DNA of 62,307 nt, filler included. It is 3 parts of 3 records of this genome, joined end to end, with 100 filler letters (N's around TTAATTAATTAA, not from the genome) between each part and the next. Parts side by side here need not be neighbours in the genome. Positions count along the whole stretch, not along the records: positions 22,878 to 49,355 come from SRR20825019_983; 2 more parts are not named here. One strand, given 5' to 3'. Both the position numbers and the translations under genes were made by a program. Shown in pieces: positions 22,778 through 62,307 of this stretch. Within the stretch, counting starts at the first letter, position 1; each line of letters begins with the position of its first letter. Below the pieces are notes generated by a model. It worked only from the letters and a program-made list of their open reading frames with translations, was not told the DNA's origin and searched no databases.

Positions 22778-22877
22778 NNNNNNNNNNNNNNNNNNNNNNN
22801 NNNNNNNNNNNNNNNNNNNNNTTAATTAATTAANNNNNNNNNNNNNNNNNNNNNNNNNNNNNNNNNNNNNNNNNNNN
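22778..22877. other. Artificial contig spacer
   Basis: 100-nt N run containing the all-frame-stop TTAATTAATTAA; composition changes abruptly across it. Confidence 0.98.
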
Positions 22878-41122: not shown

Positions 41123-44100
41123 TCACCGCCTCCGTTGGCCACGCGCTCTGCGCTCTGCTTGGCTACTCTGTGACGAATGAGTGGAACTGGAGTTATCTGA
41201 GCCACTTGACGTGGCCCAGTCATCTCTGCTGTCAGAGCTTGTCTCATACGTAGCAACGCCTTTGTTGGAAACCCTCCTCTTGCCCCTAGAATAGAATCTA
41301 CCCTCCTTGGGGCCCGTCCCTTCATCAGTAGAGTACTCTGTTGTCGGTCGTTTCCCTCCTTTTTTGGATATGCGTGGAGGGTTATCAACTAGAGTCCGCT
41401 CCTCCCGCTCTGGTCTGCCCAACCCTCTCGAGGAACTTCTCTTTTCGGGGCTCGCTTTTCTGCTCACACCAGCCGTTCCACGCTGCTTAGGGCTCCCCTT
41501 CTCAGCTTCAGGCTCCACGGGCGAGGCATCTGACCTCTGGACAGAGCTATCCTCGCACATGTCATTGACGTCTTCCTCCTTCGGATCATTCGTGGTCCGG
41601 GCTGCAACCATGTTCGGCGGTAGGGCCGGCGGAGGATCAGCCTTACTGGCCTTGGCCTTGGACTTGTTTCCCTTCATCTCATTCTTATGGTGACCCTTGG
41701 CCTGCTTCTTATCGGAGGGCTTGCTGTTCGCATGTTGGGACTTGGAGGGACCTTTCTTTGAAGCCTCAGCCAGCGTCTTTGTGATTGCATCGTCAACGAT
41801 GTTCCCCGATAACTTAGAAAACATGCCATTCGCACTCTCATCCAAAGCCATTCCCAGCACCTAAACCAGAATCAGCTACACCGCCGATATGACTTTCACA
41901 TCAATCCTACCTTCGCGGCCTTCTTGTCACCAACAGAGAGAAGGGTGTTGTAATCCGACTCGGAGAACCACTCCCATCTGTGAATTGTTGAAGGGCCCTT
42001 GTCCTTGGACTCTTCTGTGAAGAAAGATTTCTTTGGTAGTGTAGGAATCTTGATGCCAAAGAAGTAGAGATTATACTGAGACATCAGGCCTGGGTATGAC
42101 GGCGACAGGTTGGACTCCACCTTGATCTCCTGTGAACCTGGCACAAAAAGGATTTCTGAACAGCACTCAGGGATAGTGCACAAATCAACCCAATGTGGAG
42201 TACTTACCATGGTCACTATCCACAAATCCGGGAAATTCCTCACGGCATCCCCTTTCGCAGCCCTCCCAAGGATCTTCGGTCCCGAGAATCTTCTCAGAAG
42301 GCGCCGTGTATCGGCGTATGTACCTTCCCGACGCTGTTCTATCCTGGTGGGTTTCGATAAGTAACATCTTGTTTCCCATTTCCTGTATCATTTGATTTCA
42401 GCCCGGACGTCCAGCAATACCTCCTCAGCATACTCACATCGTGCATCTGGACCATCATCTTCGCTACTTGAGTGACCCTGACAATGTCGTGCTTGCACTG
42501 ATGATTCTCATGTTCCTTCTTGCCGCATATGCGTATAATGGTCTCGCCATTCTCAATCTCACTATAGAGCTTCTCCACAGTCTTGCTTTTCGGACCATCC
42601 CCCCATATCGATTCCTCCTTGCCATTATCGTATGCAAGCGTTAAAGGCATCACCGTATGTTCTTTACCATTGAACACCTGTTGATTCACACGCTTCGAGA
42701 ACCCTTGGCAACTGCTAATCAGGTTGAATAGATGTTCCATATTTTCTACCTGGACCTCCAGATAGTGGCACGACTCCGAATCTTTCAGTTCGTTGTGCTC
42801 GGCCTTGGAAGCCGCTTCGTGCGTCTTCTCAAGGCGATTCAGCACATCTCGGAACCACGCAGAATCCGAGTCAAGATCCACGCGATTGACAGTGCGACTA
42901 TTGTCTTCCCCACCGGCACCGCCTGATTTGGAGTCTGCTTGCAGTGCAGGAATTATGTCATCCTTTAGCATCTTCAGGACAGCATCAGGATTGTGTGGCG
43001 ACAAGCATCGCAGGAGGCTAGTCAATATGGGTCCGGCAACACTCAAGTCAGCTGCTTGCATTACCTCCTCCATCAGCAACCCAGGAGTCTTGGATACACC
43101 CTTATGTCCACCATCGCCCAACGCATTATTGGCTCTTGCCAATTCTTTCTTATTATTAGCCAAGTCAAGTGGCTTTTCTCTTGACAAAATTGTCATTTTT
43201 TCACCGAGCACGTTGCTCTCGCCCTTTCCATCGTCCATCCCAACATTCTCCATCCATTCCTCAAGGGTTTTCTTCGCTGCATCTGCATCCTCTTTCATGG
43301 CGAACAACATTTCGTAACGAGCTCGGGCATAGAGGGCACCATCCCAAGTGTCGACTGTGCCGGCTTCAAGATGAGAGGGTGGATTCTTAAAGTGGCGAAC
43401 CTCTTGAACACATCTCAGAAGCGTCGACGAATAGCGCTCTTTCATCCGCTTCATCATGCTTGGAGTTTCTTTTTGGGCGCCAACACCATTTCTGGACCCG
43501 TTGGACTCATCTTCGAATTTCCCATTGTGTTTCTCCTGCGACTTCGCTTTCGCATCTGGCATGGGCGGAGTGGGATTTGAGGACGATAGTCTCCTCATGA
43601 GAGGAATCGGGGCATCGAATATGGATCTTGAGGAATCCTTAGAAACAAGCATGCGGTGTTTTGAATCCTTGAAACTTTGAATTCGTGTAGTATCGCTTGA
43701 TGAAGTTGTGCCCCCGGCTGAAACAGTGCCTTTGTCATGGACCTTGGACGACGACCTGCCATTTTTACAGCACAAAGCTGCCTTAATTCTGGACCAAAAA
43801 TCTTCGGACAGCTTGGTCAAGCGCGAATCCATCATGTCGTAAAGCATCATAGTGTTGATAGTGGTTTCCCATTTAGCATCAATGGATTCCCAACTAGCCA
43901 CATACACTTCTGAGAGGACACCAATCAACAAGTTCAACAAAAGCAGATTACCAAACATGGTCACCGATACCCTGGAAAAGGTTTTAGAAGCAAGAAGCAC
44001 ACGATGTGAGCCACACTCACCATAGCAACGTGCCAAATACGGGAGCTGCGCCCTCTACCTCATCAGCATCAAAATCTCCAATCAGCATGCGAAGTATCGA

Positions 44101-47100
44101 GAGCATGGTTTGTGGATAGTTTCTGTAGCCCGATAGGTCAGGGGCCAGCCCAAAATGGGCTCCCATGGCGAAACAGAACCAGCACAAGCACAAGAGCGCC
44201 AAGAAAACAAGTGTCTTGGAATCAGTAACGGTCGCGCGAACAGCTTCGATGACAGGGCCAATGCGCGGGACCGTCACAAGGTACTTGACCAAGCGAAGCC
44301 AGCAGAGGATAAGAACAGTGGCACTAATCGTGCGAGACCAAAAGTGAAGGTAAGACAAAGTCCTCAAATCGTAGTATGTGCTTTGGGATCTGCTGATATC
44401 CACTGGAGCCATCCCGCGTCAGGCAACAATTATGCATTCACCGTATTATAACACGTACCGTCCAACTCAAACCATTCAATCATGAGAGTGAACTGGAAGA
44501 TCCACTTTGCAATCATCAACAAGAATACCTGCAAAAAAATTAATATGGCGAAAATGACAAACTCTTTAGAAAGGCAGAAGTCTTACAAGCAAGTCCCAGT
44601 AATTCCACATTGAGCGGAAATATGATGTTACATCCTGGATGAGCTCGATGACTTCGAAAATGAAATAAGAAACGACGCAGAAGAAGACGAGTATCTCGAC
44701 ACAAACAGTCAATATAGTTTCCAACGATCTTGACAAGATAGGCCGAAAAGACACCACTTGATAGGACGGAATTACTCCTCCCGTCGCAGGCATTTCCATT
44801 CTAAGTTCAATGGCTTGGATGAAGTCAGTCGCTTCATTGTAATACGCCATTTCGATAAACAAGGCGCGTGTTGCCGTGGCACTAATCCACTTTTCATTGA
44901 TAAGGGTGGTAATCACGGCCCGCGCAGCGGTAGAATCACCCGGGGTTATATCAATAACGTATCCATTATCTGGATATGATGTCCATTTCACTCCTGTGGA
45001 CGACCATCCGGAATTCTCGCTCCACGTGTATTTACCATCCGTTCCAAAGCTGCTCTTATCCTCTGTATTAAGGTAGAACTCGGGATAGCACGTGTAGTCT
45101 GAAGGTTCTAACTCTGGGGATTGACCCCAGCAAGTATCGCCCTTAACACGAACCTGTCGTAAACGGACAACACCTAATATTCTGTTCTTACTGTAAGCGT
45201 ACAGTTGCTCTGTTCCTGCAGTAGTTGCATCCCCATAGGCATCTTCAGTAGGAAAGGCGAATTCTGCCAGTGGACTCGATAACCACTTATGTACATCATC
45301 CAAGTTATTCAGATCCTGCACACTAATAAGACCGCGGGCTCTACGCGAAGGCAGATCTCTTACCATGAAAGTGGTTGGCCACTCGTCGCCTGTCGCATAC
45401 GCAATCTCTTCTTCAATGAGGCCGGCTACTGTTTTTTGGTTCAGATAGTACGTGTTCTCCGGGACCCAACCAACTCCAACAGATGTCGGGACGCTGATGG
45501 TAAGAAGAAAGAGAAACAGAATGTATGGCAAGAAAGACTTTGCGAATCTCTCCAGCAAAAATCTATCCCGCTTAGATTTCACTCGGCCTGATAAAGAGTC
45601 AGGCATATATGGAATAACAAGCGATGCGTACCAACCTATCTTGTTCAATATACTCAGCTGTTCACACGATTTCTCTACAGTATCTTTCACCCAAAGGGGC
45701 TGATCATCGTCTCCACCTTCCCTCTGCAATATCTTCTCGAGGCGAATGAATGTGCTTGACATTACCACCGCGGTATTGTACGCAGTATCTTCCGAACCCA
45801 CAGGGTCCAATGGACTAGTACTGGTGGATTCGCACAAGACTTTCACAATCTCAGGGCAAACATTCAATACGGCATAATGCATTGCGGTTTTTTCATATAT
45901 GTCGAAGAGGCCTACATCGGAAGCATCTTCATAAGATTTAAGCTTCTTTGCCTCCGATTTCGATAATCTTGAATTCAGCCATTTGTCAACGAAGGATTCA
46001 CCGCCACGGACCTCACTTGTGAGCCCAGCAAGTATATTGGATTGTGAGACGCTCGTCTCGGGGACACTAGAAACAAAACCTTTCTTCATGTCTCTCAGCC
46101 CCTTCCATTGGTTTGTGGGCATATTCGCTTTCGCTTTGCTAGATTTTTGGATTTGCAATTCGTCTCGGAGTTGAATATTCTTCGATTTTTCAAGAAGAAA
46201 TTCCACCTAAAACACGTCAGTCATTTGCGAAAATATAGTGTTCACACTCACAACTTCTCCATGTCCGCCTATCGCGGCGAAATGAAAAGGTGTTCTCCAC
46301 TCCCTTCTATCCTGTAGAAACAAGTGATTCTCCAAAGTGTTGGGATCTACCATCGCCTTGGTTTGCTCCAACGACCCCTTCATCGTAGCGTAATGGAGAT
46401 ACATCCACTTTTCTGCGAGCACATGAATCTCAGATGAACTCGATTGAGTTGGTTCCGTTCTCAATGACATCCTTTCTAGAAGCACAGTCCAGGCATCCCA
46501 GCGGTACTCCCCCTCGTTGTACTGTTCGTCCTCTTCCGTATCGAGAACTTGCTGCTCCAGAGAAACATTGTTCGGGTCATGGAATAAGGCATGGGACTGC
46601 GACTCTTGCAAAAAGGCATTCAGCATATTCCAGACATCCGGCCCGGTGACCATTCCTAACGAGTGCCTGCCTGCGGGAGTCTGGTAATAAAGGTAAGCAC
46701 TAGTAGTATGCGGCGGCTATATGTCACCTACGTTCAGCTTAGCAAGAAGTGAATATTCCTCGGCGCACGTTTTACAATCCCGAAAGAGCTTCTGGGGATC
46801 AGGCCCGAACTCCTCTCTCCATTGAACGCTTGAATTCATCAAATCCGAACCCTGCAGCAAGAGGTTAGAATTGTGATAATGCGCACTCTTGTTCACATTT
46901 ACATGGTGACGCAGATATCTCCAACGGTACATTTCGCAGGGCAGATATCCATGTTTGTCCATCACATCGATGTTGGCGCCCTTTCGGCACTTGATCAGCT
47001 TACGGATGACCCTAGATCGACCATACATGCAGGCAATGTGAAGTGGTGTGCGCATATCAATGTCAAGAGCATTCACGAGAGCATCCATCTTCAGAAGCTG

Positions 47101-49322
47101 TTCAAAGAGAAGGTCTTCAATATCGACAGGATCTCCGAGACCCAGGGCTTCACGCTTTTCCCTCTGGATCTCGCTCAGCATATGAGTAATTTCGTAATCA
47201 TGGAACAACCGGACTGCAAGATACGTCAATACGAAATCACTACAACTGCATCGCCATTACATACTTGCTACGTGAAGAATTTGACTGCCCATGTTCAATG
47301 CTTCAACCCGCTGCTCATCTGGAAGGCCAACAATAGTGGTATTTAAAGCGAATAAAACGCTAAAGAGATCCGTCGCATCAATGAACCCTCCATTGCGGTT
47401 CTATAGATGGAAACTCAATTTGTGATATGCCGCCAATCAAACGACTGTCATACCTCATTGTTACTCAACTTGAGGACGAAGGCATTGGAGGTTTGCTCAG
47501 ATGCTTCGTTGGTAGCAGTGCGGCACGTAAGCGCTACCAACTCACGAGGGAGTGTCGTGAACTTGTTGTGCGAGATATCAAGCTCAGAAAGAGACGGCAT
47601 GTGTGCATGCATAGCCTCCACCCAATGTGGGTCCAGGTCCTCAAAATTTTGCTTATATAGAATCAACCTTCTAATGTTAGATATCTCTTTGTAGAGATCG
47701 TACTTTCGACCAAAGTAAACCTCCGGCCCAGCAGCCAAGGTGATCAGATGCCTGCCTAGTTTCTCTACAGCATCCCCTTCACTACTGCTTATCATGCTAA
47801 AGTGCGGGTCCGACTCCTTGAACTTGGCCCATCCTGATTTGGCTACGGTGGTGATCCTAAAGAGATCGTAACAGTGCTGTGGCTGCGATATGAACCCCAG
47901 TCTATATGCCTTCTCATTCCCTCGCAAATCCAACGCCAACTTCGGGCATAAACCATAACCGCCGTCATTCTAGGTATTGTTGTTAATCGACGTAAGCTGC
48001 ATCATCAGCACAAAATTGAATAAAGCATCATACCTTTCCTTCCTCATCCATCTTCTTCTCGATCAATGCCTTGCGCTTGCGGAGGAATGGGATGATGAAA
48101 TTCTCTACCGCAGACACGGTGATGTTATTATTTCTAAGATCAAGTGAGAGCAGAGTCGTGTTGTCCACCAATGCCTCGAATAGCTTAATTATTCCCAACT
48201 TTCCGATCCCATTATCTCCGAGACACAGCTCCTTGAGAGTCCGAATATTCAAAAGCTTGCAAGCCACCTTCATGCCTGATGAGAGAACGTCAGAACATGA
48301 ATGAATACCAGAATGCTTATAGGAACTTACCGCTGCCATCAGCTCTTCCAAGCTTGCATGATGTTAGATTCAGGTTCTGGATAGCGCACTTTTCTTGGAG
48401 ACTGTCGGACAAATCTCCCAGCTCATCGAGTGACATTTGAACACCTCGCAGATCCAAAACAGTAAGATTACGCTGGTGTGTGATCCCGGCGATGGACCCG
48501 GCAAACTTGGCTGCGGAGAAAAGGCATTCAACGGAGATGCTTACGTTTGAACATGCGGAAATCTCACCAATGCTAAAGGTCGAGGCAAACGACGTGTTCA
48601 GCACTTGCAGTGCCTCACTCTGCTCTATGAAGTTATTCATAGAGAAATACCCAATCTCATTGTTCCCAACTTTCAACTCCCGGAGTGTCTCCTTCTGCTT
48701 CATCAATGCCGGAAACACCTTTGCAAAGTCCTCCTTGCGAAGGCCATTGCCCTGCAGCTGCAGGGATCGGAGAGCTATCTGCAACCTTGGGTCAAATCAT
48801 AACACATCGACTAAATGATCAAACCATTCATACGTGTTTGCATTGAAGGAGAGCCGCAAGAGCATCTACCTTAACAATAGTTTCGGCACGGCTATTCTGG
48901 GCATACCGTGCCATGTCTAGAGAAAAATTATCAAAATGCGAAGGCGAGAAGGTGGCTAGACTCCTTATGATTTCTAACAGAACCGAACCGTAAGTGAAAG
49001 ACAGCAAGATATAGCGGGAATGCGCCTACGTTCAAATAAACGTGCTGACAACAGTGAAGATCTAAAGGATAGACGGTGAAGCCGAGCCCCGCCGGTAGTA
49101 ACCATATCCTTGACCAGCTGAATCAGTCGGTTAACGTCCTCCATGTCTATAAACTTTGCATTCTTAGCGAGCAAGTCTTCGAACACTCGAATCTGACCAA
49201 CAGGCCCATTTAGAATATGTACAAGGTGATAATACCCATTCAATCACCTTGAGGTCAATGCAGCCATCTTCTGGGCGAGTGTGAGCCACGAGAGTCTCAT
49301 AGAACTCGTGGGTTGGTTCCAT
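41123..49322 (-). CDS. LRR + ankyrin + polycystin-2 (TRPP)-type cation channel + Nudix-like domain, ~17 introns, ~2,400 aa
   Basis: Exons from ATG 49322 splice in frame through GT-AG introns; LRRs (LKELCLGDNGIG, LLSLDLRNNNIT, LSELDISHNKFTTLP); ankyrins (RTPLHIACMYG, RTPFHFAAIGGH, KTAMHYAV); polycystin motifs LGVVRLRQVRV, TRALFIEMAYYN, SMWNYWD, LRMLIGDFD, LLNLLIGVL. Confidence 0.85.
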
Positions 49323-49329
49323 CGTGCTC

Positions 49330-49355
49330 AACACACACACACACACACACACACA
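49330..49355. repeat. (CA)n microsatellite at contig end
   Basis: acacacac run directly upstream of the channel start codon and at the assembly break. Confidence 0.9.
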
Positions 49356-49455
49356 NNNNNNNNNNNNNNNNNNNNNNNNNNNNNNNNNNNNNNNNNNNNT
49401 TAATTAATTAANNNNNNNNNNNNNNNNNNNNNNNNNNNNNNNNNNNNNNNNNNNN
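49356..49455. other. Artificial contig spacer
   Basis: 100-nt N run with TTAATTAATTAA at 49400-49411. Confidence 0.98.
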
Positions 49456-49670
49456 TGCTCTACAAATGCAATAATTTACACTTTTTTCTCTTTGCCACAT
49501 GTTTCCAACTTAAGATGTGCTTTTTTTGAAGCCTAATCTGCTTCTCTTATCCTTAACTATTGTAAACCTACATTGCATGTACATTTCTGCTTATCTTTCT
49601 GTTTAGTTATGTTGATATCTTACCTTCACTATGAATACCTTTATTATTTATCTAGAACAATCAATCGTCG

Positions 49671-51242
49671 ATGCCCAAACCGCTCAGCCGCCTATTCGGG
49701 CCCAAGTTGCTCAACCAGTCCAAGGAACTCGTAGACACGGATACCACTCTACCTGTCGGGAAGCCGGCAGATGGGGCCAAACAGCCCAAGTATGTTCTAG
49801 TGTTGTTCAGTGCCGAGTGGTGCCCAGCATGCCGTACATTCCTCAATCCTCTTAAGGAGTTCTATAAGAATCACAAGGAGGCCAAAGGCTTCGAGGTGGT
49901 ATTCGTTTCCCGAGACAACACCCGTGAGGAGTTCCGTGATTACTTCCACAACCATCATGGAGGCTGGCTATCCGTCCCCTATGAGAACACTGCCCGCCTT
50001 CGTGCCAAGCTGGCCAAGAGGTACAAGATCCAGGGCATACCCTCCCTCATCGTACTAAACGCCGAGGATGGAGGGGGCCTCATTACCAGGATGGGCCGTC
50101 AGCAGGTGCTAAGGGACCTTAACGAAGCCGCCTATTTCCCCTGGAAGCCTCGTGATGTGGGAGATATCCTGAGGGACGTGCCCATTATGAACAAGGCCGA
50201 TAAGCGCATAGATATAGCCGGTGGGGAGAAGGCCGACGGTACCGTCAATAAGAGCGGTCTGCGCTATGTGGCTCTCTTCTTCGGCTCCCGTGGATCGAGT
50301 GCCTCTCGAGTATTCACTCCCCTGCTGAAACAGCTCTACCCTCTTGTCAAGGCTGCCCATGGAGATGCCGCTGAGTTTGTGTATGTCGGTGCTGATGCCA
50401 CTGAGGCCGAGTACAAGACCAACACCGACAGCATGCCATGGGCACGTGTCCCATTCCAACACGATGGGGTATCCACCCTCATGGAGCTGTTCGGTGGGGG
50501 TGTTCCCAGCCTTGCTACTGCCGACTTGCTAACTGGCGAGATCCTCAATATGAACGCCAGTGATCTCGCTGCTGCCGAGACGGATGTTGACCCAGCCAAC
50601 CCTGACGCCCCCCTTACGAAGACGGCCTTCCCCTGGATGCGTGAGACGTTGCCTGCTGTCGCCTCCCTGGTGATGTCCCCCGCTGTGTTGGAGTCGATTC
50701 AGACCAACCACTGTATCATGCTGGCAACTAACAACGCCCCTAATATCGACGTGTTGGTTGCCGAGGTGGAGTCTGCTGCTAAGATGATTGCCGATGCCAC
50801 TGCCGATATCAAGAAATCACTTGCCGAGGTACGCGCAAGCCAAGATGCTAAGCTCACTGGGGCGAAGGTGGAGGAGGACGCCCCCAAGGAGGACTCTGAC
50901 TCTGACATTGTGGACGAAGATGAGGATGACGACGACAGTGATAGCGATATGGTTGAGGAGGGAAACTCCCAAGCCCAATCCGCCGAGCCACAGATCGTCC
51001 GCACCCTCAAGAAGTCCAAGTGTCTTGTCCAATTTTTCATCTCCGACCATCGCGACCCCAACAGTTTGGACCTTCAAAAGCGTATCACCTCCGTGCTGAA
51101 GGAGGAGCTGCCCGTCTCGGGGGCTATCATCTTCGGTTTTGATCTCAAACACAACAAGAAGTATGGTATTCTCCAAAAGATCACAGCCGGTGATATCGTG
51201 GCCTACACCAAGCAATTCCTTCTTAGTCTTCACGACAAGTAA
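49671..51242 (+). CDS. Nucleoredoxin/tryparedoxin-like multi-thioredoxin-domain protein
   Basis: FSAEWCPACRTF active site; FEVVFVSRD; GIPSL cis-Pro; second domain YVALFFGSRGSSASRVFTP with cysteines replaced. Confidence 0.85.
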   Translation: MPKPLSRLFGPKLLNQSKELVDTDTTLPVGKPADGAKQPKYVLVLFSAEWCPACRTFLNPLKEFYKNHKEAKGFEVVFVSRDNTREEFRDYFHNHHGGWLSVPYENTARLRAKLAKRYKIQGIPSLIVLNAEDGGGLITRMGRQQVLRDLNEAAYFPWKPRDVGDILRDVPIMNKADKRIDIAGGEKADGTVNKSGLRYVALFFGSRGSSASRVFTPLLKQLYPLVKAAHGDAAEFVYVGADATEAEYKTNTDSMPWARVPFQHDGVSTLMELFGGGVPSLATADLLTGEILNMNASDLAAAETDVDPANPDAPLTKTAFPWMRETLPAVASLVMSPAVLESIQTNHCIMLATNNAPNIDVLVAEVESAAKMIADATADIKKSLAEVRASQDAKLTGAKVEEDAPKEDSDSDIVDEDEDDDDSDSDMVEEGNSQAQSAEPQIVRTLKKSKCLVQFFISDHRDPNSLDLQKRITSVLKEELPVSGAIIFGFDLKHNKKYGILQKITAGDIVAYTKQFLLSLHDK

Positions 51243-51354
51243 CAATGAACTATACCTATCTACCGATATCATATTCCCACCTATTATTACTATTGATTTG
51301 TGTATGTTTTGGTCTTTATGCTTTTTCCCCACCATTTTATATTTACAGCGCATT

Positions 51355-53001
51355 ATGGACCTATCAACCAGCTCTATCTACCCCCCAACAGTATGCCCCA
51401 TCGGGGTTGATCATATAACCCGTCCTGGGTGGGTACGGCTATGGCCCTTCCCTACCTTTGAGGAGGGGCCTGCATTGGAGCCTCGATCCCGCGTTGACTC
51501 CTCCCACAGCAATGCCCCCACAGGTATTCTACCCCACGGCGTGAAGGCCCGCAAGGAGGATATGAGCTCCAGCGATGACGACGATGAGAACGCCCTTGCC
51601 AACGGTGTCCTCGAACAGAAGATGAAGCTAAACAACAGGACATCCCTCCCATGCTCAAAGACCACCGCCCATCCCCTAACGTCCGACTGGAACAAGGCCG
51701 AGTCTATTACCCCCGACTTTAAGAAACATCTACGGGGGATCAAGAGCCCCATCGACACCCGTTTTGTGCCCAAGCGGGCTAAAGTCGAATTTACGTCGTT
51801 CCTTGAAATTCTGCTACCACAAATCGAACTGAACGAGAGTCGATCTACCATTACCTCCTCGAGACCTTCCCATTCACGCCCACAGTCTGCCTTCTCCACC
51901 ACGGGCGGTAGAAGTACTGTTAGAAGTACCACTGTGCCTAGCGTGACAATCGACGAGATATCTACCCTTATCACAGTGGGGGCAGGTAGACAAGGGCCCT
52001 CTACCCCAGGCACATCAGGAGTGCTCACTGGGTCGTCGACACTTGCGGACGTACCCACCAAACACATGCATATATCGTGGCTGGGTAAGAGGGAGGGGCT
52101 CAGTAGACGTGTCCACCCCCCTGCTGTACTACTTACCCTAAATAATCTGAGCACCAAGTTACTTACACACGGCCCAAAGGACTGCCTCATCAACAGTCCC
52201 CGATCCGCTGTAGTGCTCTTTAGGAATGGGGTGGCCATCAACGAGCTGCTCCCCTCCCCTGCCATAGTGAGGGCTGTGGAGGCTCATACCGCCGAGCAGG
52301 AGGCCATAGCCAAGAACCTTCGCAGCAGTTCCCGTAAGTCGATAGCAGAACAGGCCTTGCACAGGGACACCGTCAGGGCAGTGGGTGCTCTCGACCCCCT
52401 CGAGTGCAAGCGGGAGTTGAAGAGGGCCCGCCTATTCGGTAAGATGCTCCTTGAGTACCACCAGGTGTGTGACGATGTTCCTTTTGAGGACATACTATCC
52501 TTTGCAAATGACTACGATGCATCCCGCCCCAGCTCGGCCCTTCGAATTGAGCTCCCGCCGAGTCTAGCTCCACCTCACCTTCAGGGGTCCAAAAGCAGGT
52601 TGCTGCCTGAGGATGTACTGGCATCTCGATTTGGAGAACAGTTCACAAAACATACTGAGTTCCAATCACGGGTAGTTAACATCCGCAAGATGCAACGAGA
52701 GGATAAAGAGCAGTTGCAGAGGCACACATTACATAGGATGCAGTCCAAGCAGCATCGTGTGGATGAGGCATGCCGGGCTAGACGGGCCCTACTCGATTCA
52801 AAGAGGGAGGCATCGCGTATCAACGACTCCCTCAGGGCAGACGAGCTACACCATGTACGATCGAAGAGTGCATTTCATACGTTGGTTAAACTTGAAGCCA
52901 CAGTGCGGAGGACGGACGAGGCAGGAAGTTTAGGGCGGGCACGAAGTGCAATGCGAAAACGTTACAACGACGAGTTGGTGCGTTCTGTACAACCCATGTA
53001 A
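51355..53001 (+). CDS. Hypothetical protein with C-terminal coiled coil
   Basis: Intronless ORF; ATG 51355 follows a pyrimidine tract and AG (51347-51348), as expected for a trans-splice acceptor. Confidence 0.7.
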   Translation: MDLSTSSIYPPTVCPIGVDHITRPGWVRLWPFPTFEEGPALEPRSRVDSSHSNAPTGILPHGVKARKEDMSSSDDDDENALANGVLEQKMKLNNRTSLPCSKTTAHPLTSDWNKAESITPDFKKHLRGIKSPIDTRFVPKRAKVEFTSFLEILLPQIELNESRSTITSSRPSHSRPQSAFSTTGGRSTVRSTTVPSVTIDEISTLITVGAGRQGPSTPGTSGVLTGSSTLADVPTKHMHISWLGKREGLSRRVHPPAVLLTLNNLSTKLLTHGPKDCLINSPRSAVVLFRNGVAINELLPSPAIVRAVEAHTAEQEAIAKNLRSSSRKSIAEQALHRDTVRAVGALDPLECKRELKRARLFGKMLLEYHQVCDDVPFEDILSFANDYDASRPSSALRIELPPSLAPPHLQGSKSRLLPEDVLASRFGEQFTKHTEFQSRVVNIRKMQREDKEQLQRHTLHRMQSKQHRVDEACRARRALLDSKREASRINDSLRADELHHVRSKSAFHTLVKLEATVRRTDEAGSLGRARSAMRKRYNDELVRSVQPM

Positions 53002-53083
53002 ATTAACATTTATGTAACTGGATTGCCTGTTGCGATGTGTGGGAATAATGTGGTGACCTATTTGTTGTCCCCCTAAGTTAGCC

Positions 53084-56000
53084 ATGCTCTGCGAGACCAA
53101 ACCATCTGCCAAGTTAGTTTTCAAAGACGGTACGTGCTACGAAGGTCTATCCTTCGGCGCACCTACCAGTGTTGCGGGAGAAGTAGTCTTCTCCACCGGT
53201 ATGGTGGGCTACCCCGAAGCCCTCACCGACCCCTCCTTCTCTGGCCAAATGCTAGTTCTTACCTACCCTATGATAGGTAACTACGGTATTCCCAGCCTGG
53301 AGAAGGACGCCTTCGGTGTCACCAAGCACTTCGAGTCTGACGGAGGTCAGATCCACGCCTCTGCGGTTATCGTCTCCGAGTGTTGCTTCGAGTCGGACCA
53401 CTGGCAGCAAGTGCAGACCCTTGACAGCTGGCTCAAGGCCCAAGGCATTCCCGGTATTATGATGGTGGACACCCGTGCCATCGTCCTCAAGCTACGCGAG
53501 ATGGGAACTGCCCTCGGCAAGATCATTGTTGGCGATAACGAGGTTCCCTTCGTGGACCCTAACACCAAGCTCCTAACTGAAGTCGTCAGCACCAAGACCA
53601 AGAAGACGTACGGTCACGGTAACATAACTATTCTTTGCCTCGACATGGGGATTAAACTTAACATCATTCGCTGCTTCCTCCGCAACGATGTCACCTTCGT
53701 GGTTGTCCCTCATGACTGGGACATCACTACCGAACACTACGACGGCCTCTTCATCTCCAACGGCCCCGGTAACCCAGAGATGTGCCACGCCACCATCCGC
53801 AGCCTTCGTTGGGCCATTCAGCAGAACAAGCCTATATTCGGTGTGTGCATGGGTAACCAAGTACTTGCCCTTGCCGCTGGTGGATCTACCTACAAGATGA
53901 AGTATGGTCATCGTGGCCAGAACCAGCCCTGTCGTGCCCCCGATGGTCGCGTTGTCATCACCACCCAGAACCACGGATTCGCTGTTAACGCTGGTACCCT
54001 CCCTGCTGAGTGGGAAGAGTGCTATATCAACCCCAACGACAACACCAACGAGGGTATCCGTCATCGTACCAAGCCATTCTCCGCGGTGCAGTTCCACCCC
54101 GAAGGTCGCTGCGGTCCCCAGGATACCGAGTTCCTGATCCGTGACTTCGTTGATGAGGTGAAGAAGTCCAAGATCGAGGAGGTTGTCAACTGGAAGCCCA
54201 AGAAGGTTCTCGTGCTAGGTGCAGGTGGTATCACTATTGCCCAAGCCGGTGAGTTCGACTATAGCGGCTCCCAGTGTCTTAAGTCCCTCAAGGAGGAGGG
54301 CATCGAGACTATCCTTGTGAACCCTAACATCGCCACCGTCCAAACTGATGACGAGATGGCCGACAAGGTTTACTTTGTCCCAGTCACCCCCGAGAGCGTT
54401 GAGGCCGTTATCGAGAAGGAGCGTCCTGACGGTATCCTCCTCGGCTGGGGAGGTCAGACCGCCCTGAACTGTGGAGTGCAGCTGGAGGAGAGGGGTATCC
54501 TTAAGAAGTATAGCGTCCGTGTCCTCGGCACCCCCGTGTCCACCATCGCCGTTACCGAGGACCGTGAACTCTTCCGCGATGCCCTGAAGCAGATCAACGA
54601 GCACGTCGCCAGGTCCATGGCTGTCACATCTGTCGATGCCGCCGCTGTTGCCGCAGAGACCATTGGTTATCCCGTCATGGTCCGTGCTGCCTTCTGCCTT
54701 GGAGGCCAGGGAAGTGGTATCGTGGCCAACGAGGAGGAGCTTCGTGTTAAGGTAGCCACCGCCCTCTCCGCTTCCCCCCAGGTACTTGTGGAGGAGAGCG
54801 TCGCTGGATGGAAGGAAGTGGAGTACGAGGTTGTCCGTGATATCTACGACAACTGTATTACCGTCTGTAACATGGAGAACTTCGACCCCATGGGTATCCA
54901 TACTGGTGAGTCCATCGTCATCGCCCCCTCTCAGACACTTACCAACGACGAGTACCACATGCTCCGTACCGCCTCCATCAAGATCATCCGCCACCTGGGA
55001 GTTGTCGGCGAGTGCAACGTCCAGTACGGTCTGGACCCCTACTCTCACCGTTACGTAGTGATTGAGGTCAACGCCCGTCTATCCCGATCATCTGCCCTTG
55101 CGTCCAAGGCCACTGGATATCCCCTTGCCCATGTTGCCGCCAAGCTTGCTCTCGGAAAGGGACTCCCCGATATTGCCAACGGTGTCACCAAGACCACCAC
55201 TGCCTGCTTCGAGCCCTCATTGGATTACTGCGCCATCAAGATGCCCCGCTGGGACCTCAACAAGTTCAACAAGGTAAGCAACGAGATTGGGTCTATGATG
55301 AAGAGTGTTGGTGAGGTCATGGCCCTCGGTCGTACCTTTGAGGAGACTATCCAGAAGGCCCTCCGCATGGTCGACCCCTCCCACGTCGGATTCAGCTGCC
55401 CTACCTCATTCCCAGCGGACTGGGACTACAAGGCCATCATCGCCAAGCCCACCCCCGATCGTATCTGGGCCATCTGCCGCGCACTAAATGAGGGCGTCTC
55501 CATTGACGAGATCCACGACTTGTCTAAGATCAACAAGTTTTTCTTGGCCAAGCTTGACAGCATCGTCAAGACTGAGAAGCGTCTCAAGGCCCAGTATGCT
55601 AACGTTGAGGACATGCCCATCAAGATCCTGAGGGAGGCCAAGGCCAAGGGTTTCAGTGATCGCCATCTCGCCCTTACCCTCTCTACCACCGAGGAGGCTG
55701 TCCGTAAGTATCGCCATGACAACAACGTCCTTCCCGTTGTAAAGCAGATCGATACCGTTGCCGGAGAGACATCCGCCCAGACCAACTACCTCTACACCTC
55801 ATACAACGCCCAGATCGACGACGTCAGCTTCGGAGACCAGTTCTACGTTATTTTAGGTTGTGGAGTGTACCGCATTGGTAACAGTGTCGAGTTCGACTAT
55901 GGAGGAGTGCTTGTTGCCAGGGAGCTACGCCGTCTTGGCCACAAGGTCATCATGATTAACTACAACCCCGAGACCGTCTCCACCGATTACGATGAATGTG

Positions 56001-58558
56001 ATCGCTTGTACTTCGAGGAGATCTCTCTCGAGACTGTCAGCGACATCCTCGCCAAGGAGCGTCACCGTGGTGTCGTTATCAGTGTCGGAGGCCAGTTGGT
56101 GCAGAACATTGCCCTCAAGCTTAAGTCCTCAGGATTCAAGATTCTAGGTACCGACCCCAGTAACATCGATATGGCCGAGGACCGTAACAAGTTCAGCCAG
56201 ATGTGTGATGACATCGATGTTGCCCAGCCCGAGTGGATATCTGCTGTCTCCATCGATGAAGTCCATGCCTTCTGCAAGCGCGTCGGGTTCCCATGCCTTG
56301 TCCGCCCCAGCTATGTGCTGAGCGGATCCGCTATGTCTGTTATCGGAACTGCCGATGATGTGGACCAGTACCTCCGTACCGCCTCCCTTGTCTCCGGTGA
56401 CCACCCTGTCGTTGTCAGCAAGTACTACGAGAATGCCGTTGAGTACGACGTCGATGTGGTGGCTCACCACGGCACTCTTCTATGCTACTCTATTGCCGAG
56501 CATGTTGAGGCCGCCGGGTGCCACAGTGGTGATGCCACTATGTTCCTACCTCCCCAAAACGGTACTAAGGAACTGATGAAGTCCCTCTACGATGCCGCCC
56601 AAAAGGTGGCCGAGAAGCTTGACGTGGTTGGTCCTATGAACATCCAATTCCTGCACACTGCAACTGGTGAGCTAAAGGTGATCGAGGCCAATGTCCGCTG
56701 CTCCCGCTCTGTCCCCTTCGTTTCTAAGACTTTGGGTATCAGCTTCCCCGCCATGATGGTGTCCGCCTTCCTTGCCCGTCCCGAACAGACCCTCCTTCCT
56801 ATTAAGCGCGCTAAGATGTCCCACATTGGATGCAAGGCTGGTATGTTCTCCTTCAATCGACTCGCTGGGGCTGACCCTATTCTTGGAGTCGAGATGCGCT
56901 CCACTGGTGAGGTCGGAGTGTTCGGCCGCGACAAGCACGAGGTCTTGCTCAAGGCTATGCTTTGTCAAAACTTCAAGTACCCCACTAAGGCAGTCGTTGT
57001 TGACATTGAGAAGGCCGATGATGCCGCCTCATTCGCTCCATTTGCCAAGCTGCTCGCTACCAAGCTCAAGGTCTTTGCCACCGAGCGTACCGCCGCTGCA
57101 CTATCCGCAGTTGGTGTTGAGGTACACCTTGCCTATGGCCGGGACAAGCCCACACAGCTTCCCCAGCTGGATGCACTGTACGAGGCTAAGGACATCGACC
57201 TCGCCATCCAACTTCGCGATAAGACTAAGGATTTTATCGTCCGTCATTGCACCGCCGAGGAGTCCCCAGTAGACTACTGGATCCGTCGCCGTGCTGTTGA
57301 CTTCAGTGTATCCCTTATTACCGAGGTGGCAATTGCCAAGCTCTTCTCTGAGGCCTTCGTCAAGTTCACTCCTACCGACATCGAGATTGAGCCCTTCCGC
57401 ACCTACGTCCCAAAAATCTACCACAAGCTCAAGAATGCCAACTTCACTCTCCTTCGTCGCCAGAAGGTTGGTCTCTGCATCAACGACGATGTATCCAGTC
57501 GTGTCCTTGCACTCCGCCTGAAGGAGGACTGTCACAACCTCACTTGCTTCCATGCTGACGTTGGCCAATGCGGAAGTGGATCCACACTGCTCGAGGAACT
57601 TCTCAGCGCTGGTATCCCCACCGAAATCATTGACCTCCGCACCAAGATGGCGGAGTGCTGCACCGACCTTATCATGGCCAACGCCATGGCCGAAGCCGCC
57701 GATTTCTTCATCACTAACATCGGTCGCCACGTTATCAACGGAGGTTTACTGCCCGCCATGAAGGCTAGGAAGATCAAGGTTGCCGCGCAGGCATCCAGCC
57801 GTGCCAAGCGAGTCGTTCGCTTTGAGAAGTACGTCAAGGCCATCTCCCCCGAGATCAGCGTCTACCAGCCATGGCGTGATACCCGTATGCTCGAGGAGTT
57901 CCCTCTAGAGGCCGACCAGATCGCCTATATTGTCGAGAACGGTATGGCTGCCCCTAAGATCGCCAGCGGTGTTAAGATGACCGTGAACCTCGCCGGAGTT
58001 GCCCAGACTGCCCAGTCTCAATCTACTCTCAAGCTCCAGCTCGTCCGTCTCCCTCGCGACTGCCCCGAGGAGCCTGAGTTCGTCACAATTGCCTTCCAGA
58101 ATGGTGCATGCACTCGCATTAACGGTGTTGATGTAAAGGCATACCAGGCCGTTCAGCTAGCGAACGAGATTGGTGCCCGCAACGGTATTGGAATCCAGCG
58201 TACTGCCGACGGTAACCTGTTTGAGGTTCCCGGTATGACACTCCTTGCCCGTGCCCTCCGCTACCTCTACGAGGCTATCTTCGACCGCTCCAGTATGGAC
58301 ATGATCCGCTCCTACTCCGCACATGTCGCCAACCAAGTGGCACACGGTAAGATTGCCGACCCCAGCACACAATCTGCCTTTGCTGGTATCCGCTTCCTTG
58401 CCAACGATGCCACTGGTATTGTTGAGCTTGAGCTGCACCGTGGACACGCCATCTTCCTCAAGGTGGAGGGTGTTGTCAACGCCGACGCAGACCAGGACCT
58501 ACATGGCGATGAAGTCTTCACACAAGGAAACGGTGACTTCAGCGACATGGAGTGGTAG
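53084..58558 (+). CDS. pyr1: Glutamine-dependent carbamoyl-phosphate synthetase II (GAT + CPS + MGS) with C-terminal argininosuccinate-synthase-like domain
   Basis: [21 protein letters not shown], QFHPE (GAT); [48 protein letters not shown] (CPS); kinetoplastid-like N-terminus and short GAT-CPS linker. Confidence 0.96.
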   Translation: [1824 protein letters not shown]

Positions 58559-58803
58559 TCCACATATACCTAATACTTAACTAACACTCACAAAAACAAC
58601 CATATACTTTGAAGCATGAAAAAAAAAATCTACTCAGAAACAGGCCTTGAGCTTCGTAAGATAAAACAATCACAAAAGGGAACAACAATACTCACACACA
58701 TTCACGTAAAAACACACTCTTAACATTGCATTTTGGTAGGGCCTTTGTACGACTTTGTTGTTTTGAGTTGATGATGATACTGTGTTATTTCCATTAGTAA
58801 CAA

Positions 58804-59946
58804 ATGCAGCTGCCAGGTATTATTGATTGCCACGTTCATTTCCGTGAGCCAGGATTGGAGCACAAGGCCACCATCGCTACTGAGGCCACCGCTGCACGAT
58901 CAGGTGGTGTATTTACTGTGTGCGAGATGCCTAACACCAACCCCGGTACCAACACGGTCGATGCCCTCAAGTTCAAGGTGTCAAAGGCAGATGCCGTCCG
59001 CCATCTATGCGATGTCCGATTCTTCTTCGGGGCTACGGAGATGAGTCATCTCGATGAGCTTCGTAAAATATTCACTGCTGAGGAGCACTTCGATTTCAAG
59101 CGTAACTGCAGCGGTCTGAAGTTGTACTTAGACAACAGCACTGGTAACATGAAGGCATCGGAGGAGGTTACCCACAAAGCCTTTGCCCTTTGTGCTGAGC
59201 TCGGAATTGTACTTGTTGCACACTGCGAGCATGCACACACCAACGACACTGCTGCTGCATGCTGCCCATACTCTGATCCCAAGTCCCACTCAGAGCGCCG
59301 CCCTGTGAAGTCTGAGGTGGAGTCCATTAAGGAAGCTATTGCCATTGCAGCGAAACACAACACCCGCCTCCACATTGCCCATCTCTCGACGGCTGGCGGC
59401 CTTGCACTGGTTATTGAGGCCAAGGCAAAGGGACTCCCAATCACCTGCGAAGTAACCCCTCACCATCTGCTGCTTTCATGTGATGATTACGCCGTTTTAG
59501 GTGGCCGCGCGAAGGTCAACCCTCCTCTTCGCCCAATCGACAACCGTGGTGACTTGTGGGCGGGAGTTGTTTCAGGAGCCATTGATTGCATCTCTACTGA
59601 CCATGCACCCCATCTTCTGTCCGAGAAGGACGCCGATGGAGTTCCACCCTCAGGCCTCCCAGGTGTCGAAACCGTCCTCTCCCTCATGGTGTCTATCGCT
59701 CTTGGATGCTGGCCTCATCCTAGCGATCCTCAACCTCCCAGGAGTAAGGAGTTCTCGATGGAGCACATTCGAGCTCTGATGTTTGAGAACCCCAACAGAA
59801 TCTTCGGGCTCGGGGCTGATAGCACCCCCAAGCTAACAGTGTCCTCAGAGGGATTCAAGCACATCCGCGGTGTCGATCAGAAGACCAAGTGTGGATGGAC
59901 CCCTTACGAGAACTGGAAGGTCAAGGGCGCCATTAGTGAGATCTAA
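58804..59946 (+). CDS. pyr3: Dihydroorotase
   Basis: DCHVHFREPG, EMPNT, GLKLY, VAHCE, HIAHLS, EVTPHHL, KVNPPLR, STDHAPH, KCGWTPY. Confidence 0.95.
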   Translation: MQLPGIIDCHVHFREPGLEHKATIATEATAARSGGVFTVCEMPNTNPGTNTVDALKFKVSKADAVRHLCDVRFFFGATEMSHLDELRKIFTAEEHFDFKRNCSGLKLYLDNSTGNMKASEEVTHKAFALCAELGIVLVAHCEHAHTNDTAAACCPYSDPKSHSERRPVKSEVESIKEAIAIAAKHNTRLHIAHLSTAGGLALVIEAKAKGLPITCEVTPHHLLLSCDDYAVLGGRAKVNPPLRPIDNRGDLWAGVVSGAIDCISTDHAPHLLSEKDADGVPPSGLPGVETVLSLMVSIALGCWPHPSDPQPPRSKEFSMEHIRALMFENPNRIFGLGADSTPKLTVSSEGFKHIRGVDQKTKCGWTPYENWKVKGAISEI

Positions 59947-60070
59947 CTTACATTAATATTTTTTGACATGTTCCCATTTTATCAGTTTATAATGATGCCA
60001 TAGTGAAGCGGAGTGATTATCAATTTACATTTCCCCTTTTAAAAGTGAAAGCTATCAAACAATAACGACC

Positions 60071-61903
60071 ATGCACGGACGCGAGAAGAAGGGAGTTCCC
60101 AAGAAGGTTGCTTCAACTCAATCCGGTGTCTCATCCCCTACCGCACAGGGTGCATCTCCCTACCACTCCTACGGCCATGCTCTTGACGAGCTTGGCTACG
60201 ACAGCACGCAGTTCGATGCGATGTTGGACACTTTGCAGAGTGACAAGAAGGCAAAGAGTCTTGAGACCATCGGCACCATTCTAGGCCACCTCCGAGTCCT
60301 CGACAACAACACCTCCTCCCACTACATGGCTCATGGCGCTACCGTCATGTCCGCTATGGAGTCGGCCCTTGCAACCAACAAGAAGGCAACCCTCAAGGAC
60401 CGCGTCGCCATTATCCAGACTGGTACACTTCTTGCTAGTACCCACGGTGACGACATCCTAGAGCTTTATGACACTTGGGCCAACGTTTGCTTCCAATCGG
60501 TGGCTGGATCTGCAGCATCTAGCAACCTCAAAAGTGCACTAGGAGCCGCCTGTTTCGACGGCCTGGCAATCCTCAACGCTTGCAATCCCTCCGCCACTGT
60601 TCAGATTGGTGGAAGTGGTAACCAAGGCCGAGGTGGAAGCGTTGCCGAGGGACTGATGGACCTTGTTATGCGACGCGGTTACCAGTCGGCTTTGGCAAGT
60701 ACTGGTATCGCGGATGTCACTCCCCTGAATCATTCGACCATTCCCAGCTCCATCATTGCAGCCTCAGTTCCAACACTGTACACTGCATTCTTCGGAGGGT
60801 CGGCACTAGGGGGCGCCACTAAGGATGTTACAAACAACACCAACAACCCCGATGAGAATGATGATGGTTCTGCAACCAGCGGTGGGATCGCAACGGGAGC
60901 AGCTGCCTCTTCTGCCGCTGCTGCTGCAGCCGCCGCCCTGCTCCTTGAAGGCTCCCCTTCTGACTTATCCTTCGCAGCATTCCTCAAATGTCTTGCACTT
61001 TCTTGCGAGGCTTCTCAGTCCAGGAAGGTGCGTGGGGTCATTGAGGGTGCCATTGCGTACTTCATCGGACTCAACCCAGTACCATCTCCATCGGACCCTT
61101 CCACCGAGTTCCCAACCAATAGCACTCCTGAGTTGCTTTCAACCGTATCCCCCGCCACTACCGTGTTGATCGTTCGCGCACTTGAGGCTGCTACAGTGCT
61201 GAACAGCCGCTTTCCTCTTCTATTCGCTTCCCCTACCGAGACAAGCAATCCAACTTCAGGTAACAACTCTATTCCCCAGTCGCCGAACGGCTCTAATATA
61301 TCCTCGGTGTCTGGGCTTGCCCCGTTTACGAAGTTTTCCCTCAACGCTGAGGGCCTCAAGACCCTCCGGAAGCTTATTGCCACAAGTGGTGCCACGATGG
61401 GCAAAGCTGGCAAGCGACTACTGTCGAAGGCCATTCGCTCTCTTCAGGCATCCCTTCCAGACATGGAAGTGAACGACGACGATGTCGATTCTGACGACGA
61501 TGCCCCCCAGGCTGATGCTTGGGGAGAAGAAGGTATTGGAAGCGACGACGAGGAGTCTGACGATGACGACGATAACAATGCAGCAGACGACGGTTTCGTC
61601 ATCAAGATTCGCTTCCGTAAGTCCAAGGCTGTCGTTATTGTCGGATACCACCGTTGCGTGCTGACGCAACTGTTCAGGGGTCTCATGGAGGGGGGATTCC
61701 ACAGGCACGTAGTTCACAACTCGGCTCTTCAGCGTGTCCTTCGCCCCACTCAAGCCGGAATGGTCGACGACGATGACACAGTTATATCTTCGTACAAGGA
61801 GCGTAAGAGCCGCATGATTCAGCAGCAGGTTGCAAACAAGCGCGCCAACGACAAGGAGAGGTCCAAACATCGCGACCAGAAGGACAGTCATGCAGACGAG
61901 TAA
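60071..61903 (+). CDS. IFRD (interferon-related developmental regulator)-like protein
   Basis: C-terminal FRGLMEGGFHRHVVHNSALQRV...KERSKHRDQK resembles the IFRD C-domain; helical N-terminal region (LDTLQSDKKAK). Confidence 0.65.
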   Translation: MHGREKKGVPKKVASTQSGVSSPTAQGASPYHSYGHALDELGYDSTQFDAMLDTLQSDKKAKSLETIGTILGHLRVLDNNTSSHYMAHGATVMSAMESALATNKKATLKDRVAIIQTGTLLASTHGDDILELYDTWANVCFQSVAGSAASSNLKSALGAACFDGLAILNACNPSATVQIGGSGNQGRGGSVAEGLMDLVMRRGYQSALASTGIADVTPLNHSTIPSSIIAASVPTLYTAFFGGSALGGATKDVTNNTNNPDENDDGSATSGGIATGAAASSAAAAAAAALLLEGSPSDLSFAAFLKCLALSCEASQSRKVRGVIEGAIAYFIGLNPVPSPSDPSTEFPTNSTPELLSTVSPATTVLIVRALEAATVLNSRFPLLFASPTETSNPTSGNNSIPQSPNGSNISSVSGLAPFTKFSLNAEGLKTLRKLIATSGATMGKAGKRLLSKAIRSLQASLPDMEVNDDDVDSDDDAPQADAWGEEGIGSDDEESDDDDDNNAADDGFVIKIRFRKSKAVVIVGYHRCVLTQLFRGLMEGGFHRHVVHNSALQRVLRPTQAGMVDDDDTVISSYKERKSRMIQQQVANKRANDKERSKHRDQKDSHADE

Positions 61904-62214
61904 CAAATTCAACAACACCAATCACTAATCAACCATCATCTTGCGGATTGGAAATTGATTACCAGTAACACTCTATTGCCATTTGATTTTGTTCAGGCTG
62001 TGATTTATTATGCTTTGTTCCATAAATTTTTTAAGGTGTTGAAGTAAACTTGTTTGGGTTGGTTGGGGTTGTTGCATGGCCTGGGCTTCCCCCACGCAGT
62101 GTATGATTGTCGTCCATCGCATCGGTGTTTCCATCAATGCTAACTTGTTAATTGTCTTTTCATTCAACCCTTCCAGTGCCCTTCGCAATGTCATATTTAA
62201 CACCCAAAAACTCC

Positions 62215-62307
62215 TTAGGGTTGGGGTTGTTGCATAAAAATAAAAGGTTAGGGTTGTTGCTTAAACTTGTTTAGCTTAGGTTTAGGGTTAGGGTTAGGGT
62301 TGGGGTT
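62215..62307 (+). repeat. Degenerate telomeric TTAGGG repeats
   Basis: TTAGGG at 62215 and 62248, three tandem copies at 62282-62299, TTGGGG variants; G-rich strand points toward the contig end. Confidence 0.7.

Follow-up and report, generated by a model that had tools for sequence, protein, structure and literature searches.

A stretch of DNA of 62,307 nucleotides (hereafter the window) carries on its minus strand a split gene that appears to encode a six-helix polycystin (TRPP/PKD2-like) cation channel of the protist type, from an intron-bearing eukaryote, and this channel very probably includes in its C-terminal part a domain of an uncharacterised Nudix-like family. After splicing the domain comprises ~180 amino acids (aa), is encoded by three exons, and corresponds to about residues 2027-2204 of a tentative gene model of 2468 aa. 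The best explanation overall, to which we assign a probability of about 55%, is that it serves as the cytosolic, C-terminal, ligand-sensing part of the channel.

TRPM2 with its NUDT9-H domain is the textbook example of a Nudix domain that turns a TRP channel into a metabolite sensor. The design of a channel plus a Nudix domain is therefore already known, and what the sequence of the window appears to add is the same design in another channel family (TRPP) and with another Nudix family. An initial annotation of the window had read the domain as a ligand-binding or hydrolytic gate, analogous to but not derived from NUDT9-H, and this functional interpretation is plausible. Titles and abstracts of the literature searched, much of it on TRPM2 or other TRP channels, yielded no polycystin or PKD2 channel with a Nudix domain. 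A preprint on choanoflagellate TRP channels (10.64898/2026.06.15.732245) describes, in the 12 of 14 matching passages covered, NUDIX domains on TRPMs and on one non-TRPM protein of the TRPW clade, and reports none on a TRPP there.

Results

The domain belongs to a large Nudix-like family

The peptide strings quoted in the initial annotation are all present on the minus strand. That annotation had also proposed two introns within the domain; exact GT..AG ends were found at just those positions (Table 1), and the spliced reading from 42701 to 41126 is free of stop codons. The three exons that contribute to the domain are referred to below as A, B and C, and the last exon of the gene as D.

When metagenome contigs were scanned with exon C, 318 pattern matches were obtained, one of which was confirmed. 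This single locus, L001, contains an uninterrupted, intron-free open reading frame (ORF) of 185 aa from its first Met. With the L001 protein as a phmmer query against 1.84 billion representatives, the family came to 1527 representative clusters (50% identity) at E<=1e-3, 720 at <=1e-10 and 5 at <=1e-30. Among the best 150 of the 1527, most are stand-alone proteins of about 166-210 aa. An alignment of 68 sequences (A1), composed of L001 and 67 of these best 150, with long fused forms left out, has the consensus WGxGxAKT ... LxEDRQxFxDGRxRxR ... SxxEK-x4-E-x7-R-[AG]-x-x-EELGI ... SxSYPGL, followed by a terminal invariant W. The pattern WG..KT / E.HQ / SEK / SYPGL / W, which the initial annotation had put forward, thus turns out to be the signature of a real and large family. 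Literature matches to the motif SYPGL were unrelated.

Measured against the profile of this family, the spliced segment of the window is a clear member. It scored 74.3-76.9 bits as a single domain that spans profile positions 22-180 of 183, where 74.3 bits corresponds to an E value of 5e-25 for one sequence, against 3.1 bits for the reversed sequence and at most 2.7 bits in 20 shuffles. The signal is additive over the exons, with 17.0 bits for A, 20.4 for B and 25.9 for C scored singly. When the profile was run over all 1395 stop-to-stop frames of at least 25 aa from both strands of the window, the top three matches were the frames of exons C, B and A (E 2.2e-6, 9.5e-6 and 2.1e-3), and the next match had an E value of 1.9. 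The alignment to L001 is collinear across the three exons, with 54 of 184 positions identical (29%, E 2e-11). At columns that are at least 80% conserved, the window copy agrees with the consensus in 28 of 38, including all six that are invariant (L38, L74, R89, K97, E115 and W178), and its departures include R87 to I, L116 to F and Y165 to F. A BLASTP search with the spliced domain matched 125 of 153 collected proteins at E<=1e-3, the nearest being P0028 (30-34% identity, E 5e-21).

A predicted, divergent Nudix fold with a modified box

The family as a whole appears, from profile comparisons and a predicted structure, to be a divergent branch of the Nudix superfamily. Pfam NUDIX (PF00293) is matched by 46 of the 68 aligned members at E<=0.01, with a best value of 7.6e-8; L001 itself lies below the cut-off of that model (18.1-18.5 versus 21.1 bits). 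The family profile found 14 PDB sequences at E<=1, of which 13 are Nudix proteins aligned on the box. An AlphaFold2 model of L001, made with the A1 alignment, reached a pLDDT of 95.0 and a pTM of 0.87, and a Foldseek search of the PDB with this model gave 167 matches at E<=0.001, all of them Nudix among the matches listed, with modest TM scores of 0.33-0.50 on the query. Both profile and structure searches, made by way of the family and L001, thus lead to Nudix proteins and support the Nudix-like interpretation that had been given to the domain at the outset. One of the best structural matches, AraR, is a Nudix-type regulator and illustrates that some Nudix domains act purely as sensors.

Other searches contributed little. 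NCBIfam models gave scattered matches of MutT or RppH type in at most five of the 68 members, and PHROGs and PADLOC scans of the same 68 gave one to three marginal matches only. A phmmer search of the PDB with exons B and C returned nothing meaningful. In the ESM Atlas, exon C retrieved unnamed clusters at 0.93 and a weak NUDIX lead at rank 13 with a 20% share, which we treat as a lead only. A word-index search with exon C among longer proteins gave 37 candidates, none of which scored.

The canonical Nudix box, G-x5-E-x7-R-E-U-x-E-E-x-G-U, is not matched by the window in full, since its first G is replaced by E and the Glu of the 'RE' pair by G. The spacing is intact, and E, R, EE and one G are retained. 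Both the spacing and the two substitutions had been pointed out in the initial annotation and proved to be real, and the substitutions are family-wide. In HMMER alignments, E-K..E..R-a-l-x-E-E-L-G-I of the family lies on G-G..E..R-E-x-x-E-E-L-G of solved Nudix enzymes. The two canonical GG positions are occupied by E in 67 of the 68 members (E96) and by K in all 68 (K97), while the position of the 'RE' Glu is never Glu (0/68; A 44, G 18, C 4, V 1, T 1). The remaining box residues are kept: E102 in 66/68, R110 in 67/68, E114 in 66/68 and E115 in 68/68. The corresponding residues in the window are E, K, E, R, G and EE. Because the substitutions run through the whole family, they represent a family signature, not decay of the window copy. 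In MutT, the 'RE' Glu plays an important part in catalysis, and the changes found in human NUDT9-H, which is inactive, affect this residue among others.

Fusion to a polycystin channel

The elements by which a polycystin (TRPP) channel is recognised, namely a TOP domain, a PKD_channel region and six membrane helices, are all present in the host gene (Table 1). The closest long relatives of the channel ORF in a word-index search were two vertebrate PKD1L2 proteins at 24-26% identity, and the same search gave no orthologue carrying the Nudix-like domain.

Part A of the domain lies in the same exon as the sixth membrane helix (S6), and the 435 codons of the linker between them contain no stop codon, for which the chance expectation from base composition is ~3e-11. 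The domain is thus fused to the channel, whatever the splicing of the remaining exons. For domain identity and fusion taken together our confidence is high. The tail encoded by exon D, downstream of the domain, matches neither Pfam nor the family profile (-1.4 bits).

Upstream of the channel core lie ankyrin-repeat exons and, tentatively, exons with leucine-rich repeats (LRRs). If the path-search model is right, the architecture would tentatively be LRR, ankyrin, polycystin and Nudix-like. That model comprises 15 introns, starts at an ATG at 49322, and upstream of 47300 is derived by minimum-intron path search alone. The middle contig terminates in a (CA)n run (49334-49355), and this contig end lies 34 nt from the tentative start, so the 5' end of the gene may be missing. 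The LRR-bearing ORFs (47451-48796, minus strand) immediately precede the ankyrin exons of the gene.

Table 1. Features of the Nudix-like domain, the channel gene and the window. Positions count along the whole window
Feature	Position	Strand	Basis or remark
Exon with S6, 435-codon stop-free linker and first part of the domain	42438..43971	-	1.5 kb; hydropathy, exon model; ORF 42339-44054
Domain part A: WG-x-G-x-x-K-T motif, helix, first strands	42438..42608	-	profile positions 22 to ~68
Intron 1	42437-42383	-	55 nt, GTGAGT..ACAG, phase 0; family profile spans junction
Domain part B: L-x-E-T-H-Q, G-R-x-x-R-R, modified Nudix box	42208..42382	-	175 nt; profile positions 69-117
Modified Nudix box, E-K-x4-E-x7-R-G-x-R-E-E-F-P-G	42227..42295	-	
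Intron 2	42207-42156	-	52 nt, GTAAGT..TCAG, phase 1
Domain part C: S-P-S-Y-P-G-L motif, strands, invariant Trp (HRWEW)	41911..42155	-	245 nt; profile positions 130-180
Intron 3	41910-41861	-	50 nt, GTAGGA..TTAG, phase 0
Last exon (D): 245-aa tail rich in Ser, Lys, Arg and Gly	41123..41860	-	stop codon 41125-41123
Polycystin (TOP) domain, between S1 and S2	44743..45318	-	Pfam PF20519, E 1.3e-30, residues 297-488 of ORF 44569-46206
PKD_channel	44020-44418	-	Pfam PF08016, E 6e-10
Six predicted membrane helices	43916..45534	-	hydropathy on exon model
S1	45534-45480	-	hydropathy
S2	44715-44661	-	hydropathy
S3	44592-44480	-	hydropathy; spans an intron
S4	44331-44277	-	hydropathy
S5	44214-44160	-	hydropathy
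S6	43970-43916	-	hydropathy
Membrane-region introns (n=3)	44586-44529, 44458-44403, 44020-43972	-	read directly; also found by path search
Ankyrin-repeat exons, upstream of channel core	46210..47256	-	Pfam Ank families, E 2e-7 to 2.7e-5
Introns among ankyrin exons	46251-46207, 46731-46681, 47264-47214	-	
Tentative 5' exons with LRRs	47451..49322	-	Pfam LRR matches; joined only by minimum-intron path search
Three contigs, joined artificially	1-22777, 22878-49355 (SRR20825019_983), 49456-62307		two spacers
Spacers	22778-22877, 49356-49455		each 44 N + TTAATTAATTAA + 44 N

A proposed role for the domain

If the domain is the ligand-sensing part of the channel, it would bind a ligand of the nucleoside-diphosphate type or another phosphorylated small molecule. 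Candidate binding residues are the Arg residues that form a conserved ladder ahead of the box and, within the box, its Glu/Lys/Glu-Glu constellation, possibly together with a metal, and the domain may turn the ligand over slowly. The long linker that follows S6 would convey ligand occupancy to the pore. The result would be a cation channel regulated by a metabolite in the manner of TRPM2 with NUDT9-H, but assembled independently. On the narrower question of whether the domain regulates or gates the channel, rather than being an enzyme that merely resides there, we regard the odds as even.

That the domain is instead an active hydrolase without a gating role, tethered to the channel and acting on a local pool of substrate, is possible but unlikely, although it is the alternative that survives best. 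There is a precedent: in invertebrate TRPM2 orthologues, NUDT9-H is reported to hydrolyse ADP-ribose while being dispensable for activation, and the published work includes studies of TRPM2 from Nematostella and from choanoflagellates. Such an enzyme would also fit the charged residues of the box, which are strongly conserved in the family from E96 and K97 onwards, are all present in the window and resemble an active site, as well as the predominance of stand-alone relatives of ~180 aa, a form typical of enzymes. The family also has one fusion each with a HAD hydrolase (P0027), a canonical NUDIX domain (P0153) and a P-loop kinase (P0061), and these point in the same direction. The canonical 'RE' glutamate is nevertheless missing in every one of the 68 members, and a tether of 435 residues without functional coupling would be unusual.

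We consider it improbable that the Nudix-like segment is a separate protein (~200-450 aa), made from an internal start or through an unseen splicing or polyadenylation event, with the channel ending earlier. Most relatives do stand alone, and an in-frame ATG (42650-42648) is found 14 codons ahead of the WG motif. Initiation at 42650 would do away with the N-terminal helices that precede this motif in family members, and the absence of stop codons argues that the linker is coding and in frame with both S6 and the domain.

Also very improbable is a model in which a single 77-nt intron (42420-42344, GTATTG..CCAG) leads from exon A straight into the reading frame of exon C, so that the box is misread and the domain broken. 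This model is stop-free, needs fewer introns and was the first choice of the minimum-intron search. Its score, however, is 37.6 bits, divided between two fragments that leave out profile positions 81-129 and with them the box, against 76.9 bits in one piece for the two-intron model, which homology therefore favours. The donor of the 77-nt intron is weaker than GTGAGT or GTAAGT, and its 77 nt exceed the length of the other 14 introns in the same path-search model (43-64 nt).

Several observations weigh against a ligand-sensing Nudix-like domain in this channel. The splicing is read from homology and the form of the splice sites only, and no exon scanned singly matches Pfam NUDIX. The Nudix fold of the window's own domain is a prediction carried over from L001, a relative with 29% identity. 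Since the family lacks the canonical 'RE' Glu, canonical hydrolysis is doubtful. The 435-aa linker has no detectable domain, and the coupling path to the gate is therefore not evident. Among 108 genes flanking the 61 prokaryote loci described below, no partner gene recurs, the commonest Pfam family being found in three, and the bacterial neighbourhood therefore gives no functional or operon hint. Finally, the limited searches made turned up no second channel with this domain; a profile search among longer proteins returned P0153 and P0061 only and no channel fusion, which is weak evidence.

Occurrence and partners of the family

The initial annotation had proposed a plant, algal and bacterial range for the family; the members whose source is recorded come from bacteria and one huge phage. 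A scan of prokaryote genomes with one peptide pattern gave 61 loci, a sample that is biased for that reason and was grouped by record title: 19 loci in Saccharibacteria, 17 in other Patescibacteria (candidate phyla radiation), seven in metagenome-assembled genomes of Gammaproteobacteria, eight in other named groups (a cyanobacterium, Brocadia, Trueperaceae and others) and ten in bacteria without a group name. One copy was found in a phage collection, in an unannotated 642-kb record of an uncultured huge phage. In the Atlas, the clusters closest to L001 come from bacteria and phage and bear the automatic names 'NUDIX domain-containing', 'hypothetical' and 'GDP-mannose mannosyl hydrolase family'. 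Taxa are recorded for a minority of the family matches.

Longer forms of the family combine the domain with diverse partners. P0028 (653 aa) has ankyrin repeats and two tandem copies of the domain, P0027 (423 aa) the domain and a HAD hydrolase, P0153 the domain and a canonical NUDIX domain, and P0061 (530 aa) a HicA toxin, a Zeta/AAA_33 P-loop kinase and the domain; P0095 (705 aa) has three matched stretches and no Pfam match. The kinase, HAD and HicA partners, each seen only once, hint at work on nucleic-acid ends or nucleotides. In the L001 contig, the ORF that follows the Nudix-like gene (809-1468, plus strand) has a weak dockerin- or EF-hand-like match (E 0.002-0.018, below cut-offs).

The other contigs of the window

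The first contig (1-22777) has a GC content of 0.30-0.39 and closely packed, intron-free ORFs in bacterial style. They include an S8 peptidase and an M36 fungalysin, each with a Por_Secre_tail (type IX secretion, Bacteroidota-type), as well as UvrB, a GH3-family protein, an Orn/DAP decarboxylase and a GT1 glycosyltransferase. The other two contigs (22878-49355 and 49456-62307) have a GC content of 0.44-0.56 and are eukaryote-like. The bacterial style of the first contig, set against the other two, indicates that the assembly or bin mixes organisms. A chimera of bacterium and eukaryote as the source of the AT-rich first 22 kb was ruled out, since the window consists of three contigs with spacers.

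On the third contig, a plus-strand ORF of 1833 aa (53057-58558) combines a carbamoyl-phosphate synthase (CPSase) small chain, a glutamine amidotransferase (GATase) domain, a CPSase large chain and, at residues ~1492-1800, an argininosuccinate synthase region; it looks like an unusual CPS-ASS fusion. The two Thioredoxin_8 stretches (E 4.7e-40) of another plus-strand ORF (49656-51242) are nucleoredoxin- or tryparedoxin-like. No match came from Rfam or tRNA scans covering the whole window.

Discussion

The predicted channel and TRPM2 are both six-helix cation channels of the TRP superfamily with a cytosolic C-terminal domain of Nudix fold, a fold that is predicted for the window, and in both the Nudix box is non-canonical, so that both look like ligand-sensing or 'chanzyme' designs. 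The core in the window is of the polycystin/TRPP type (PF20519, PF08016) rather than TRPM, its N-terminus is built of ankyrin and possibly leucine-rich repeats where TRPM2 has melastatin-homology regions, and its Nudix domain comes from another family. The 435-aa linker between S6 and the domain and the 245-aa low-complexity tail after it are further points of difference from TRPM2. No NUDT9 or TRPM2 chain was found among 17 PDB sequence matches to E 10, nor among the best 50 structure matches. The difference in channel family, together with matches that reveal no particular affinity to NUDT9, suggests independent assembly, and the view in the initial annotation that the domain does not derive from NUDT9-H fits these data.

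Polycystin-2 (PKD2/TRPP) shares with the channel its six helices, the placement of a TOP domain between S1 and S2, and a tail at the C-terminus that is cytosolic. The tail of PKD2 bears an EF-hand together with a coiled coil and is not known to include a Nudix domain. The domain of the window resembles the stand-alone Nudix-like proteins in profile and conserved columns, but whereas these are mostly single-domain proteins of ~170-210 aa, it forms the tail of a channel of ~2400 aa and is interrupted by two introns. From canonical Nudix hydrolases (MutT, NudB, RppH and ADP-ribose pyrophosphatase) the family differs in having E-K for GG and mostly A or G for the 'RE' Glu, and in an extra N-terminal helical segment that carries the WGxGxAKT motif.

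A second, independent fusion of a Nudix domain to a channel would suggest that the design is a recurrent solution and not an isolated case. It would also open a functional approach to a large Nudix-like family, since any ligand found to gate or regulate this channel would become a candidate for the family as a whole. A bolder proposal, which we put forward as speculative and rather unlikely, is that some protist polycystin-type channels independently evolved nucleotide gating by capturing a member of this Nudix-like family, abundant in Patescibacteria and present in a huge phage. If true, the family would be a dedicated receptor, or a slow hydrolase, for a specific signalling nucleotide, such as a messenger derived from ADP-ribose or NAD, or a capped RNA end, and the channel fusion would provide an electrophysiological read-out with which the ligand of the family may be found.

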